A stretch of DNA of 32,000 nucleotides. It comes from Psychrobacter sp. HD31 (GTDB taxonomy: Bacteria; Pseudomonadota; Gammaproteobacteria; Pseudomonadales; Moraxellaceae). The stretch covers positions 870,001-902,000 of the forward strand of contig NZ_CP142525.1 of the NCBI RefSeq assembly GCF_051097895.1, given 5' to 3'. Under the pieces are notes generated by a model, which worked only from the letters and a program-made list of their open reading frames with translations, was not told the origin of the DNA and searched no databases. Within the stretch, counting starts at the first letter, position 1. Each line of letters opens with the position of its first letter. This document shows, piece by piece, positions 19,217 to 23,427 of this stretch. The position numbers were made by a program, and so were the translations under genes.

Positions 19217-19362
19217 TATTTACAACTAATAAGCTGAACCATTTCAAATCAAATAAATATAACACTTACGTATCTAAATAAACATTTATTTAAAATGTTA
19301 ATAGATTATAAAACAAGCAAGCGTAGGCTGGTCTTATATCATATTACGTTAGAGAGTTTACT

Positions 19363-19866
19363 ATGAAAAAAGCATTAATAACCATGCTGGCTTTAAGTTT
19401 GACAGGTTGTGGTATTACTGGTTATATGCAATTGTGGTCTGATTTAGGCTCAGATAAGACCCATGTGTCTAATCAAGATAACCGTTGTATTGAAAATATT
19501 AAGCCATTAATTTTATGGCATGGTCATAAAGTTCATATATACCAAAAATATTTTATTACTCCTACGTCAGTTGCTGATGAACGAATACGAACCCATAAAA
19601 AAACAGATACAATTGATGTGGGCACTAAGTTTAGAGTTAACAGGGTCTATGAAGGTTATAAAGACTATTGGAGGTTACGAGTAAATGTGGAGTTTTTACA
19701 AGGCAAAAATACAGGAATTATTTCTGAATTATCAGGTTTCATTTATCCTCCAAATACACCTTTATTTACTTATTATAATCAGGGAGAAAGAATTACTAAA
19801 AGTGAAGATTTAGCAGCAAATACGGTAACTTTTAATCCTGAGTTTTTTAAATATTGTGATGAGTAA
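19363..19866 (+). CDS. Hypothetical lipoprotein
   Basis: It has a lipobox (MKKALITMLALSLTGC) and an upstream purine-rich RBS. I recognise no family. It lies at the edge of the AT-rich islet. Confidence 0.6.
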   Translation: MKKALITMLALSLTGCGITGYMQLWSDLGSDKTHVSNQDNRCIENIKPLILWHGHKVHIYQKYFITPTSVADERIRTHKKTDTIDVGTKFRVNRVYEGYKDYWRLRVNVEFLQGKNTGIISELSGFIYPPNTPLFTYYNQGERITKSEDLAANTVTFNPEFFKYCDE

Positions 19867-19896
19867 TTGAAGGTAATGTTATCTACGTAGCAAGTA

Positions 19897-20030
19897 GTAG
19901 GGTGCGTTCCACGCACCATTTTATACAACCAAACCAAATTAAATAAAGATTTTTATGATTAATATCATGTATCTATAAACATAATAAAATCAATATCGTG
20001 TCATCTTTCAGTGCGTGGAACGCACCCTAC
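19897..20030. repeat. REPIN/MITE-like element, family A, copy 1 (inverted REP doublet)
   Basis: Its ends are GTAGGGTGCGTTCCACGCAC ... GTGCGTGGAACGCACCCTAC, perfect 20-nt terminal inverted repeats. Each contains a GGTGCGT/ACGCACC hairpin preceded by GTAG. A second copy with about 10 mismatches lies at 21672-21805. Confidence 0.8.
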
Positions 20031-20038
20031 GCACTGTG

Positions 20039-20153
20039 TTAATTTTTTTTATAAGCTTTGCGAAATTGTTCTATATGTTTGGTAAGTAGTTGTGATTTTC
20101 TATCATACAGGTTTATGGTAATAAAGTAACATCCACCTTTGGTTTTGTCTCAT
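20039..20153 (-). pseudogene. Remnant of a REP-associated tyrosine transposase (RAYT, IS200/Y1 family) N-terminus
   Basis: My minus-strand translation is KTKGGCYFITINLYDRKSQLLTKHIEQFRKAYKKN*. This matches the RAYT N-terminal block as I recall it from E. coli YafM (KGGTWFFTVNLRNRRSQLLTTQYQMLRHAI). The ATG (20153-20151) is in a different frame, implying a frameshift, and the ORF stops after about 35 codons next to an A8 run and a REP. Confidence 0.55.
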
Positions 20154-20241
20154 ATTTAGGTTCGCATGCGCTGATTTATCGTTTGATTTTATGTTTATAG
20201 GCTTTGTTCATAATATCGTTTTTATTTGAACATAACAATTT

Positions 20242-20265
20242 GCTGGGCAAGATGCCCAGCCTACG
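20242..20265. repeat. Solo REP, family B
   Basis: The sequence is GCTGGGCAAGATGCCCAGCCTACG, a GCTGGGCA/TGCCCAGC hairpin followed by CTAC (GTAG on the other strand). Confidence 0.7.
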
Positions 20266-20310
20266 TTCTCTGGCTTGATTTTGATAATGGTATCTACGCT
20301 CGCTTAGACA

Positions 20311-20598
20311 TCATGGAATAATCTCATAAGTAAATTTATCTACCCAATTGAATTGTTCATCTTGTTTTTTAGTTTTTTTGAACACTTTAATTATATCATC
20401 AAAAGTATCTATGTTTTTTCTTGACACATCTGCGTTTATCCAAGTGATGTGAACAGGTCTTTCAACATTAGCACTTAATGTGTCCCATAAAGCATCCAGA
20501 TTTTTTCCATAATATTTTTGTATATCAAATACTTTTGCAATTTTATCGTGAAAACCCTGTTCAGTTAAGATTTTTTTTCCATCTAGTACAATATTCAT
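20311..20598 (-). CDS. Barstar-family ribonuclease inhibitor (orphan immunity protein)
   Basis: MNIVLDGKKILTEQGFHDKIAKVFDIQKYYGKNLDALWDTLSANVERPVHITW aligns along its length with B. amyloliquefaciens barstar (..[49 protein letters not shown]), including the barnase-contacting Asp35/Asp39 equivalents. I set the start at the ATG at 20598 rather than the track's TTG at 20610. Confidence 0.85.
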   Translation of the reverse strand: MNIVLDGKKILTEQGFHDKIAKVFDIQKYYGKNLDALWDTLSANVERPVHITWINADVSRKNIDTFDDIIKVFKKTKKQDEQFNWVDKFTYEIIP

Positions 20599-20600
20599 AA

Positions 20601-20684
20601 TTACTTCCAAGTTCCTATAGCTGTTGCTGATTTGTAATGATAGTTTGTGATATATAACAAACCATCATTAGAATAGTTAAGTAC
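20601..20684 (-). pseudogene. Short C-terminal remnant of a barnase-like RNase toxin
   Basis: My minus-strand translation is VLNYSNDGLLYITNYHYKSATAIGTWK*. It resembles the barnase C-terminus (ILYSSDWLIYKTTDHYQTFTKIR) and includes the catalytic His position. The stop is 2 nt before the barstar ATG, and the 5' side is cut off by REPIN-B. Confidence 0.5.
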
Positions 20685-20686
20685 CA

Positions 20687-20820
20687 ATAGGCTGGGCTTA
20701 TAGCCCAGCAGATTATAAAACTAAAAAATCAATACAAACAAACTTTAGAAAAATAACGGATTGAAATATTCGTAAAGTTATACATCCCCTACAAAATAGC
20801 TGGGCAAGATGCCCAGCCTT
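20687..20820. repeat. REPIN/MITE-like element, family B, copy 1
   Basis: The sequence is ATAGGCTGGGCTTATAGCCCAGC ... AGCTGGGCAAGATGCCCAGCCTT. Inverted terminal REP hairpins flank an AT-rich core of about 90 bp. It is near-identical (about 8 mismatches by eye) to 21434-21568. Confidence 0.8.
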
Positions 20821-20830
20821 ATATTCCTTA

Positions 20831-21274
20831 CTAATTCATAATTAGATAAATATTAGGTGGCGACTCATACATAGCATCAAAAAAATTAGCTTCTTTTAAA
20901 TTCATTGTTTGCCATTGCACAACTTCACACATCTGTGCTGTAAGGCTGGTTAAGTATGAATCATTTAATACTAATAAAACTTTTTGAGAAAAAACTGGAT
21001 ACTTATTAACAAACTCTAACCAGCCTACAATATATACATCTTTCCAATTATTCCATTGTTCTATAAACCAATCAGAAACAATATCATGTAAAGCGTCTAG
21101 GTTTTTTCCTATTTGAATGTCCGTACTATAACTGGCTCTAAGATTATTGCCAATAGCTATTAAAAAATCATCTTCTAGCTTACATTGTTTCAGGTTAATA
21201 ATTATATTATCTGAGTTCTCAGACCGTTTTTGACCAAATTGATTCCAGCTTTCTTTATTTTCAAAGACAATCAT
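20831..21274 (-). CDS. Barstar-like immunity protein (extended, 147 aa)
   Basis: The central block DFLIAIGNNLRASYSTDIQIGKNLDALHDIVSDWF carries the barstar GxNLDALxD motif with both Asp retained. Its start codon overlaps the stop of the upstream RNase fragment (ATGA). Confidence 0.7.
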   Translation of the reverse strand: MIVFENKESWNQFGQKRSENSDNIIINLKQCKLEDDFLIAIGNNLRASYSTDIQIGKNLDALHDIVSDWFIEQWNNWKDVYIVGWLEFVNKYPVFSQKVLLVLNDSYLTSLTAQMCEVVQWQTMNLKEANFFDAMYESPPNIYLIMN

Positions 21275-21432
21275 TTTATTCTTCCAAATGAGTCATAATG
21301 AGTACCTGTATAATACATTCTGCCGTCACTACCGACAACGATTCTGTCTGTACCTGCACCTAAACCATCTCTTACATTTTGAATGTCATATTCTTTATAG
21401 GTTATTTTATGACCCGATTTAGTTACAGTACC
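21271..21432 (-). pseudogene. 5'-truncated barnase/RNase Sa-family toxin domain (C-terminal 53 codons)
   Basis: My minus-strand translation is GTVTKSGHKITYKEYDIQNVRDGLGAGTDRIVVGSDGRMYYTGTHYDSFGRIK*. It aligns with RNase Sa (YHEYTVITPGARTRGTRRIICGEATQEDYYTGDHYATFSLID) and barnase (WREADINYTSGFRNSDRILYSSDWLIYKTTDHYQTFTKIR), with the catalytic Glu, Arg and His positions present. It has no start codon, and the upstream side runs straight into REPIN-B. Confidence 0.75.
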
Positions 21433-21433
21433 A

Positions 21434-21568
21434 GTAGGCTGGGCTTTTAGCCCAGAAGATTATAAAACTAAAAAATCAATACAAACAAACTTTAGAAAAA
21501 TAACGGATTGAAATATTCGTAAAGTTATAAACCCCTTACAAAATAGCTGGGCAAAATGCCCAGCCTAC
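21434..21568. repeat. REPIN/MITE-like element, family B, copy 2
   Basis: The sequence is GTAGGCTGGGCTTTTAGCCCAG ... AGCTGGGCAAAATGCCCAGCCTAC. It has the same architecture and core as 20687-20820. Confidence 0.8.
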
Positions 21569-21671
21569 GCTTGCTAGCACCAATGGAATTATTCACATCC
21601 GCTCTACCAATATTGGTTACATTATCCGCATAATAGCCACCCACCACTTGGTCGGGGTTATGTAGACCCAA
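21569..21671 (-). pseudogene. Internal fragment of a toxin-like ORF (possibly an HNH/EndoVII-fold nuclease domain), truncated on both sides by REPINs
   Basis: The minus-strand frame is open across the whole 103-bp unique segment and reads LGLHNPDQVVGGYYADNVTNIGRADVNNSIGASK. The H-x-P-D-x3-G-G ... N-x-S-I-G pattern reminds me of His...Asn cores in polymorphic-toxin HNH-type nucleases. This is recognition from memory only. Confidence 0.35.
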
Positions 21672-21805
21672 GTAGGGTGCGTTTCACGCACCATTTTATA
21701 CAAAAAAGCCAAATTAAATAAAGATTTTTATTATTAATATCATGTATTTATAAACATAATAAAATCAACATCGTGTCATCTTTCAGTGCGTGGAACGTAC
21801 CCTAA
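21672..21805. repeat. REPIN/MITE-like element, family A, copy 2
   Basis: The sequence is GTAGGGTGCGTTTCACGCAC ... GTGCGTGGAACGTACCCTAA. It is colinear with 19897-20030, and its right end provides the stop codon of the 109-aa ORF. Confidence 0.8.
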
Positions 21806-22131
21806 GCACTTCTCCTATAGAATTCTATAAAAACATCATGTTTGTCAGGGCAAGTACGGAAGAATTCTACTTGAGAAGTAGAAAATATCTTGCTATTGAT
21901 GTTATAATCATTTTGTATTGAACTTGCTTCTAAAAAATTATCAATTAATAATGAGAACTCAAACATTATTTCATCTCTTATAACTTCTTCATCTTCATGA
22001 CTTTTATCATTTAGGATAAAATACAGGGATATTTGTTTACCATTCATAGAAAAATAAATTCTCTTGAAGTTATCATTTATCTCACCCAAACAAGCTTGCG
22101 ATAACAAAAAACACACATGAAAAAAATCCAT
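21802..22131 (-). CDS. Hypothetical 109-aa protein (candidate orphan immunity protein)
   Basis: An intact ORF has a strong RBS (AGGAG 7 nt upstream of the ATG). It is small, acidic and cytoplasmic-looking, and its context is a toxin/immunity cassette array. I recognise no family. Confidence 0.5.
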   Translation of the reverse strand: MDFFHVCFLLSQACLGEINDNFKRIYFSMNGKQISLYFILNDKSHEDEEVIRDEIMFEFSLLIDNFLEASSIQNDYNINSKIFSTSQVEFFRTCPDKHDVFIEFYRRSA

Positions 22132-22170
22132 AATCAGCTCCTATTTCACTGGCACTATACTAACTTTCTT

Positions 22171-22187
22171 AGGCTTATAGCCCAGCA
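22171..22187. repeat. Degenerate REP family B half-site
   Basis: AGGCTTATAGCCCAGCA matches the left REP-B (AGGCTGGGCTTATAGCCCAGCA) with a 5-nt deletion that destroys the hairpin. Confidence 0.4.
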
Positions 22188-22407
22188 ATATCATTGCCTA
22201 ACCAACAATACCTAATCGTATTCTAAATCCATTATAGTTAATATACCATCATTACCCCAGTCAGATGAATAAAGACCTTTTTCAATATAGCAAACGCCTC
22301 CAACATTGTTATGCTATGTGCCTTTACTTTTGTTCAATATTATTCTATCAGGGCTATTTTGGCATCTGTTTTTGCGGGGGCTGTTGTGGTGGTTTAGGTT
22401 AGTTGTA

Positions 22408-22429
22408 CTGGGCAAGATGCCCAGCCTAC
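22408..22429. repeat. Solo REP, family B
   Basis: The sequence is CTGGGCAAGATGCCCAGCCTAC, the same hairpin plus CTAC as at 20242-20265 and in the right ends of REPIN-B. Confidence 0.7.
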
Positions 22430-22446
22430 GGTTCCTTTTCAATAAA

Positions 22447-23070
22447 TCAAATTAAATGCAGGTATTTATTGATTATATATTCATATACATGTTTTTTATC
22501 AAACATTGTAATCTCTACTTTAGCAGTGCCACGCTCCCAAAATAAAACTTGCCACTCTGTTTCACTTATTTTTTTTATACTTTCACAATCATTTCGTGTT
22601 TGAAAATCACCATAAAACCAATCTTCAATTTTACCAGTGATAGACTCTTGGTTAATTACAACTTCCTTAAAAACTTCTCGAATCTCATTGATACGTCCAA
22701 CAAAATCTTGATACGTCTCTAAAGGATTCAAGAGAATTGCTACTGCCTCTTCAAAGTTTTTAGTTTCTCGATACCAGCCCTTTGTTGGATATGAATCTAG
22801 ATTTACTGACAGTAATTTTTTTGATTTGTTGCGGTATTGATCAAATAAAACCTGTAAATCAAAAAAGTCTGGATGATATGTACTGATAGATATATGCTTA
22901 CCAGAATCAATTTTATAAATTCTAGATTCATCGCCAAAAGATTCAATCGTGATGCCAGATTCAGACTTTAATGGATAGAGTGTATTACCTACTCTGTCTA
23001 AATCAATATTAAATTCTGTATAAAAAAAACGACGATACTTATTCATTTTTTCCAATCTATCATTGTTCAT
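22447..23070 (-). CDS. Hypothetical 207-aa protein (candidate immunity protein, unknown family)
   Basis: It is an intact ORF with no signal peptide or TM segment. Its ATG directly abuts the TAG of a 27-codon upstream ORF (23071-23154), a coupled arrangement like the toxin-immunity pairs downstream. I recognise no family. Confidence 0.6.
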   Translation of the reverse strand: MNNDRLEKMNKYRRFFYTEFNIDLDRVGNTLYPLKSESGITIESFGDESRIYKIDSGKHISISTYHPDFFDLQVLFDQYRNKSKKLLSVNLDSYPTKGWYRETKNFEEAVAILLNPLETYQDFVGRINEIREVFKEVVINQESITGKIEDWFYGDFQTRNDCESIKKISETEWQVLFWERGTAKVEITMFDKKHVYEYIINKYLHLI

Positions 23071-23427
23071 CTATGTTGGTTCTATACGTTTATAAAATGA
23101 GAAGTTATGTGCATCATACTGTAACTTACCACGCCCATACAAACCAGCAAACATGTAGAGTTTTATTTAAAACTAACCAAAAGAAATTTTTACCCAATTA
23201 TCAAGCGCCAACTTAGGTCGTGTTAACAAGGTACGAGCTTAACACGACAAAATTCTAGTCAGTAAAAAAACACTTAGTTAAGAAAAAACCAGATGCTGAC
23301 ATAGCCCTGATTGCAGCGGTTATACTGCCTGATTTGGTGGGTTGCAAAGGCTAGGTTTTGGCGGGGCGACGCGGTGAGCAAGCGACACGCCAAACCGTGC
23401 CACTGCCCCACAAAAACAGGTAGATAA

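Follow-up and report, generated by a model that had tools for sequence, protein, structure and literature searches.

Barstar-type immunity genes beside truncated polymorphic-toxin remnants: a probable wrecked array of orphan cassettes in a strain-variable island of Psychrobacter sp. HD31

The locus described here lies in a 32,000-nucleotide stretch of the Psychrobacter sp. HD31 genome (assembly GCF_051097895.1, contig NZ_CP142525.1, positions 870,001 to 902,000), which is called the window throughout and to which all coordinates refer. Between the polA stop codon (19217) and a DEAD-box helicase gene, the window holds an island (19218-23213) that is probably a wrecked array of orphan polymorphic-toxin cassettes, in which the barstar-type immunity genes have been kept and for which we infer a protective role. 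Read along the minus strand from 21700 to 20200, the array comprises a stretch of an Ntox15 nuclease, a repeat of ~135 bp, 53 codons of a barnase-type RNase, an intact open reading frame (ORF) of 147 amino acids (aa), a second copy of the repeat, 28 codons that probably belong to another RNase, an intact 95-aa ORF, and a solitary hairpin. Immunity genes that have lost their toxins are a known pattern; what sets this case apart is the position of the toxin truncations, which coincide with copies of a short DNA repeat.

The 95-aa ORF (20598-20311, minus strand) is, on its sequence, an unambiguous member of the barstar family. It matches Pfam Barstar PF01337 with 71.4 bits (E 6.5e-20, profile positions 3-85 of 96) against a cut-off of 23.4 bits, and it aligns with residues 3-80 of the solved barstar of B. 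amyloliquefaciens in the PDB (E 2.4e-10, 28% identity). The barstar residues Tyr29, Tyr30, Asp35, Trp38, and Asp39 are conserved, and an NCBI protein of Psychrobacter sp. HD31 that is identical to the ORF carries the label "barstar family protein". Barstar inhibits barnase by occlusion of the active site. The similarity to the barnase-barstar system extends to the YYG-NLDALWD inhibitory helix and to the location of the gene immediately behind a member of the barnase/RNase Sa family, but the partner RNase in HD31 is the dead remnant of the C-terminal domain of a large polymorphic toxin and not a free secreted enzyme.

That remnant is probably a tail of a barnase-type RNase toxin domain (20687-20601 including the TAA codon, minus strand; LNYSNDGLLYITNYHYKSATAIGTWK followed by the stop). 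Its identification as an RNase end, proposed earlier from inspection of the sequence, is only partly borne out by profile searches, and its length is 28 codons rather than the 27 originally counted. The coding part (20687-20604) has no Pfam match. With our own RNase profile, for which 150 relatives were used, it ranks second among the 1525 six-frame peptides in the window, yet the match covers 16 residues with an E value of 0.07. It does, however, align over 31 aa, with 52% identity, to the end of an intact Rhs-RNase of Proteus mirabilis (E 3e-9 pairwise, 0.05 database-wide), the gene of which is followed by that of a 96-aa barstar. In a tblastn search, it matched Pantoea and Proteus tails as well as "ribonuclease domain" proteins of Bacillus; in Pantoea soli the same RNase tail is found just upstream of a partial barstar gene, among orphan genes of contact-dependent growth inhibition (CDI) systems. 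The position of the HD31 tail directly upstream of a barstar gene adds support to its assignment as an RNase. Of the catalytic positions, only the His is left. The stop codon is separated by 2 nt from the start of the 95-aa ORF (TAA-tt-ATG, 20603-20598), and a Shine-Dalgarno-like GGAAG motif, located 5 nt before the ATG, is within the retained RNase tail. This pair appears to be related to Proteus/Pantoea RNases that occur in an Rhs or CDI context.

The 147-aa ORF (21274-20831, minus strand) is best described as a divergent, extended barstar relative with a putative barstar fold. The protein itself scores below the Barstar cut-off, whereas its three known homologues all match the family (best E 8.9e-9; 32 bits for the member from locus L126, described below), and a profile-profile comparison with barstar (hhalign) gave a probability of 69.6%. 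It differs from barstar in matching only the N-terminal half of the profile and in having an extension of ~75 aa. There was no match among PDB sequences. Like the 95-aa protein, it is 100% identical to an NCBI entry of Psychrobacter sp. HD31, which comes from a 2.17-Mb contig. The family is very rare, with 2 matches among 5.8 billion proteins, and a scan of genome contigs found no relatives. Where it has been seen, the gene is always directly downstream of an RNase of one type, which is that of the 53-codon stub in HD31. The TGA stop codon of the stub is coupled to the start of the 147-aa ORF by an ATGA overlap (21274-21271), and a GGAAG motif 6 nt upstream of the ATG is again within the toxin stub.

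The 53-codon stub (21432-21271, minus strand) corresponds to the C-terminal half of an RNase toxin domain of the barnase type, as indicated by matches to Pfam Ribonuclease PF00545 (36.5 bits, cut-off 24; profile positions 52-97 of 98) and to our own RNase profile (E 1e-19). It aligns with residues 68-109 of barnase and binase, and its Glu (in KEYD), Arg (in TDR), and His (in THY) correspond to barnase Glu73, Arg87, and His102. The N-terminal helices and the equivalents of Lys27 and Arg59 are missing, a loss of ~70 residues as compared with the intact domain in locus L125, and DNA homology to intact relatives begins at ~21427. The stub is 84% identical to a fragment from P. sanguinis and 71% identical to the intact domain of L125. 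When the P. sanguinis fragment, which is longer, was used in an exhaustive HMMER search, 960 relatives were obtained, and those nearest to it form the C-terminal domains of proteins that begin with PT-HINT pretoxin domains, RHS repeats, or a TadE-like N terminus. This pair is related to the Psychrobacter PT-HINT toxins.

The first-pass annotation had described two divergent barstar-family genes, each preceded by a severed RNase C terminus. The coordinates, frames, and junctions of both pairs are as it gave them, the ATGA overlap and the TAA-2-nt-ATG spacing can be read directly, and its assignments of the 95-aa ORF to barstar, of the 147-aa ORF to a divergent branch of the same family, and of the Glu, Arg, and His in the 53-codon fragment to catalytic positions agree with the searches above. 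The upstream pieces are not mis-framed: every upstream frame is closed by stop codons within the repeat, and therefore the 53- and 28-codon stretches are not parts of longer ORFs. The proposal that the two cassettes were acquired independently is supported: the pairs are of different lineages, the closest barstar to the 95-aa ORF being from Pantoea (51% identity), and the identity between the two barstar ORFs of the window is only 38%, over 47 aa. Although the cassettes have no recent history in common, the two decapitation junctions do, because a 95% identical copy of the repeat is present upstream of both RNase stubs. The further suggestion, that immunity against the RNase toxins of competitors is being stockpiled, is putative and has indirect support from comparison with the related loci described below, in which the immunity gene is intact in four of four and the toxin dead in three of four, and from a dN/dS value of about 0.18. 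Three features were absent from the earlier description: the repeats at the stubs, an Ntox15 remnant, and the strain-variable nature of the island.

The Ntox15 remnant (21671-21569, minus strand) is an unannotated internal nuclease fragment of 34 codons with a repeat on both sides. It matches Pfam PF15604 with 27.0 bits (cut-off 22.5) over profile positions 93-123 of 153 and includes the HxxD motif as HNPD, and its tblastn matches are mostly labelled "polymorphic toxin type 15 domain-containing protein". The sequence LGLHN at 21671 was considered as a possible end of a PT-HINT domain (...VHN); this was rejected because Pfam and tblastn place it at the Ntox15 HxxD motif. No cognate GAD-like immunity gene is left. 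The repeat brings profile position 123 of Ntox15 directly up to the central part of the RNase domain, which implies that the end of Ntox15, its immunity gene, and the first ~70 residues of that domain were lost. All three toxin stubs lack most of the fold and part of the catalytic residues, and therefore cannot be active.

Each of these three stubs begins at a doublet of repetitive extragenic palindrome (REP) hairpins. The doublet adjoining the RNase stubs, REPIN-A, comprises two inverted GTAG-headed hairpins (GGCTGGGC-N5-GCCCAGC; also written GTAGGCTGGGC-N5-GCCCAG) around an AT-rich spacer of ~90 nt. Copy 1 (21434-21568), which joins the Ntox15 fragment to the 53-codon stub, folds into a single long hairpin (z -4.65), and copy 2 (20687-20821) abuts the start of the 28-codon tail. 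The copies, each ~135 bp, agree at 95% of 140 nt, a stretch that extends 7 nt (TGGTACT) past the hairpin; this extension is read in different frames of the two RNase stubs. A second doublet family, REPIN-B (GTAGGGTGCGTTCCACGCAC), is also present in two copies: copy 1 (19897-20030), at the distal end of the array, forms a long hairpin (z -9.07), and copy 2 (21672-21805) provides, with its head, the stop codon of a 109-aa ORF. Solitary REP-A hairpins are located at 20243-20264 (minus strand), where a terminator-like hairpin follows the stop codon of the 95-aa barstar gene by 47 nt, and at 22408-22429, after a 207-aa ORF. The first REP-A hairpin of each REPIN-A copy in the direction of transcription also scored as terminator-like, including the one after the 147-aa gene. 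All 10 REP hairpins of the window are located in ~2.5 kb (19897-22430), and there are none in the other 29 kb. A truncated REP head was noted at 19324-19332.

GTAG-tagged REPs are known to be located just after coding regions and to be linked to REP-associated tyrosine transposases (RAYTs) (Di Nocera et al. 2013, PMC3733652). The HD31 elements resemble these and the REPINs of Bertels and Rainey in the GTAG head, the short GC-rich palindrome, the inverted doublets that can form one long hairpin, the location just behind coding regions, and the genus-wide spread, but are distinguished by the ~90-nt spacer, by a composite that was found in this window only, by the clustering of the copies in one island, and by their position at gene-truncation junctions. 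More than 20 species of Psychrobacter and Moraxellaceae have the REP-A hairpin, where it is mostly solitary and never adjoins barstar or RNase genes. In metagenomes the head of REP-B is a common sequence that is often arranged in doublets. The full REPIN-A composite was not found in other Psychrobacter loci, and its interior was not found in metagenome contigs. From the anatomy of the junctions, the 5' parts of the toxin genes would have been lost at GTAG-type REP doublets, most likely by insertion of a doublet and subsequent recombination or deletion between copies.

The same anatomy could be taken to mean that the doublets are the boundaries of site-specific cassette capture, integron-like or RAYT-driven, that assembled the array, and not generic selfish repeats by which it was damaged. 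Every minus-strand gene of the island has a REP hairpin downstream in the same orientation, every toxin stub starts at one, the hairpins are clustered in the island, both REPIN-A copies have the identical 7-nt extension, in a different frame for each stub, and the island boundary on the helicase side is inside another GTAG/TTAG-headed hairpin. We nevertheless regard capture as very unlikely. The REP-A hairpin is generic and unrelated to toxin genes across the genus, the REP-B head is widespread in metagenomes, and truncated, useless pieces of toxin fit damage better than capture. No RAYT transposase or integrase was found in the window, and an integron attC reading of the ~135-bp repeats was rejected because their ends are GTAGG...CCTAC; unlike integron cassettes, they have no RYYYAAC/GTTRRRY attC cores, and there is no intI among the window ORFs. 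A related proposal is that the doublets are exchange points of a hot spot, possibly RAYT-assisted, at which conflict cargo is swapped between polA and the helicase gene, with immunity cassettes in HD31 and a methyltransferase/ATPase module in the sister strain, and toxins are trimmed while immunity genes are spared. The three stubs at REP doublets, the helicase-side breakpoint in a GTAG/TTAG hairpin, and the 7-nt flank common to the REPIN-A copies are compatible with it, and we consider it improbable, if less so than capture.

Comparison of the loci that carry the family of the 147-aa gene places the loss of the toxin in a wider context. (i) In L125, a HINT end (WVHN) is followed by a complete RNase domain and, with the same ATGA overlap, by a 146-aa immunity gene that is 59% identical to the 147-aa ORF. 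(ii) In P. sanguinis (L001), the RNase is interrupted by an IS66 element and the immunity gene is intact. (iii) L126 is an orphan array of classical layout, with a PT-HINT fragment upstream; a nonsense codon at the catalytic Arg of TDR has inactivated its RNase (L126 1902-2054), with the remainder still in frame, and the adjoining immunity gene is intact. Together with the window, the toxin is dead in three of four loci, whereas none of the four immunity ORFs is truncated. The inactivations are three independent events: a REP doublet in HD31, IS66 in P. sanguinis, and a nonsense codon in L126. The similarities within the HD31 pair are mosaic, the toxin tail being nearest to P. sanguinis (84%) and the immunity gene nearest to L125 (59%, as compared with 41% to P. 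sanguinis), which points to recombination at the junction of toxin and immunity gene, or else to an immunity gene that diverges very fast.

This asymmetry bears on the possibility that the island is neutral wreckage, in which the barstar ORFs are still intact only on account of their small size and of the recent onset of decay, and confer no benefit. Destruction of all three toxins, the dense invasion by REP elements, the absence of the island in a 98.4% identical strain, and the extreme rarity of the 147-aa family all speak for decaying junk. The dN/dS value for the immunity genes is 0.18 for the L001-L126 comparison, the sole unsaturated pair, and that of the toxin stub is also low (0.10), so that low values largely reflect history before decay. 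In contrast, neither of the two immunity genes is disrupted as compared with three of three toxins, the same asymmetry recurs in three independent related loci, and the start codons, Shine-Dalgarno-like motifs, and stop-start coupling have been kept. On balance we consider neutral decay unlikely, though it is the most plausible of the alternatives.

More probably, the array is one of retained immunity genes. The proteins would be made and, most likely, would neutralize incoming RNase toxins, cognate or near-cognate, in the way that barstar neutralizes barnase, by binding to the active site and plugging it. The cell, although it has ceased to produce the toxins, would have protection without the cost of the weapon. 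The short toxin tails may persist because they carry translation signals, and possibly promoters, of the immunity genes. Protection by orphan immunity genes and arrays is known for toxins of type VI secretion systems (T6SS), CDI systems, and Rhs proteins (e.g. bioRxiv 10.1101/471110, PMC10470768).

Several observations weigh against this interpretation. The 95-aa ORF lacks two barstar residues, Trp44 and Glu76, which are replaced by Asn and Lys, respectively. The 147-aa ORF matches Barstar with 21.5 bits (E 2.2e-4), under the 23.4-bit cut-off, and over profile positions 4-50 only, and its AlphaFold2 model, from an alignment of two sequences, is unusable (mean pLDDT 34). Purifying selection after orphaning is not proven by the dN/dS values, because most of the divergence probably predates the loss of the toxins. 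Promoter-like sites in the island are at chance level (20 found, 19.4 expected from shuffles); as the scan gave no excess over shuffles, a TTGTTT-N18-TATAAT motif in REPIN-A that faces the stubs is a matter of speculation only. The REP-mediated deletion step is one that we infer solely from junction anatomy. Finally, HD31 may encode elsewhere a full-length toxin whose C-terminal domain matches, which would make the two genes ordinary self-immunity paralogues.

In the last case, the cassettes would be a silent reservoir of toxin C-terminal domains and immunity genes, or duplicated immunity genes, of a full-length polymorphic toxin (PT-HINT, Rhs, or other) that the genome still carries elsewhere. 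In CDI and Rhs systems, orphan arrays normally follow a full-length toxin gene or undergo recombination with it (Koskiniemi et al. 2014, cited in PMC10469887), and L126 retains PT-HINT homology upstream of its orphan. The HD31 pairs are best classed with the orphan toxin-CT/immunity modules of CDI (cdiA-CT/cdiI), Rhs, and PT-HINT systems in the Zhang/Aravind classification, which they resemble in that a toxin C terminus is tightly coupled to an immunity gene and several unrelated cassettes are arranged in one orientation in a variable, low-GC island. They differ from modules that can be re-armed. No full-length toxin, no homology to PT-HINT or Rhs-core pretoxin regions or to VENN, and no secretion gene was found in the window, and tblastn with PT-HINT-bearing relatives detected no HINT remnant there. 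The stubs have no upstream homology for recombination, since they start at REP doublets with stops in all frames, and pieces of 53, 34, and 28 codons are too short for re-arming; those of 53 and 28 codons could not restore a toxin. On the evidence of the 32-kb window, self-immunity seems to us improbable, to much the same degree as the exchange-point proposal.

The interpretation as orphan immunity genes also places the array close to the acquired interbacterial defense (AID) clusters and orphan immunity arrays of Bacteroidales and of the Vibrio cholerae T6SS, which have been proposed to protect against the toxins of competitors (bioRxiv 10.1101/471110, PMC10470768, PMC12247911). As in these, toxin-less immunity genes are found in a strain-variable island. 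In contrast to AID clusters, the HD31 array is small, with two recognizable immunity genes, has no visible backbone of recombinases or mobile elements, is in a Psychrobacter host, and involves RNase toxins, and its protective effect is putative.

The island as a whole (19218-23213) has a GC content of 31-33% as compared with 41-47% in the flanks, is specific to the strain, and was probably acquired horizontally. A contig (L120) from the 98.4% identical strain matches the window at 26719-23214 and 19217-19072 and diverges between these, where a different insert of 4.67 kb (L120 3508-8175) occupies the place of the island. This insert encodes a C5 DNA methyltransferase (DrmMII/Type II MTase-like), a 758-aa protein with two GHKL ATPase domains, and a 368-aa protein without an assignment, and the module is restriction-modification-like. 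Its presence at the same site indicates that the polA-helicase interval is a hot spot for the cargo of conflict systems. A GTAG/TTAG-headed hairpin (23213-23252; GTCGTGTTAA...TTAACACGAC) is located exactly at the break of homology on the helicase side and differs at several positions between the two strains, in flanks that are 98% identical. The motif CCTAC GCTTGCT is present at three REP ends, among them the L120 junction. A 27-nt inverted repeat with 85% complementarity (22347-22373 and 23285-23311) brackets the 207-aa ORF, its outer arm being in DNA that the sister strain has in conserved form; an inversion or a small mobile unit may have left this trace. The window gave no match in scans with Rfam or for tRNAs.

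The remaining ORFs of the island have no family assignment. Look-ups of exact protein sequences for the ORFs of 95, 147, 167, and 207 aa returned no match. Those of 109 aa (21802-22131, minus strand) and 207 aa (22447-23070, minus strand) gave no match in Pfam, NCBIfam, PADLOC, or a tblastn search of plasmids, and each is conjectured, from its setting, possibly to be another orphan immunity gene. A 27-codon ORF (23071-23154, minus strand), for which no homology was found, ends with a TAG that abuts the ATG of the 207-aa ORF (TAGATG); because this coupling is like that of the toxin-stub/immunity pairs, the two are suggested to be a toxin tail and its immunity gene. On the plus strand, the island-specific ORF at 19363-19866 encodes a predicted lipoprotein of 167 aa with a signal peptide and a lipobox-like start with Cys, which may be a periplasmic immunity protein. 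At ~22213-22290, the minus strand encodes a peptide (...GLYSSDWGNDGILTIMDLEYD followed by a stop) in which LYSSDW is identical to barnase residues 89-94, with a 21-nt match to RNase-tail DNA, and a degenerate REP-A half follows it at ~22165-22186. A third RNase remnant at this position (GLYSSDWGNDGILTI, ~22290-22213), resting on the same six residues, was not accepted because it is backed by neither the RNase profile nor Pfam.

As assignments, barstar and RNase are nothing out of the ordinary, what is new is modest in extent, and current concepts are unchanged. The locus is of use for annotation, as the toxin stubs and the Ntox15 piece are easily mis-called, and it is a concrete case of REP doublets that mark the points of toxin truncation. 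It adds a rare, extended barstar-like immunity family, of which four members have been seen, and it provides a test bed for cross-protection between immunity proteins that are 41-59% identical. Orphan immunity genes are thought to shape survival in dense microbial communities, with most examples from gut Bacteroidales, Vibrio, and enterobacteria, and to these the island adds an example from Psychrobacter. The three independent toxin knock-outs, each with an intact immunity gene, give comparative support to the principle that a lineage may lose the weapon and keep the shield.

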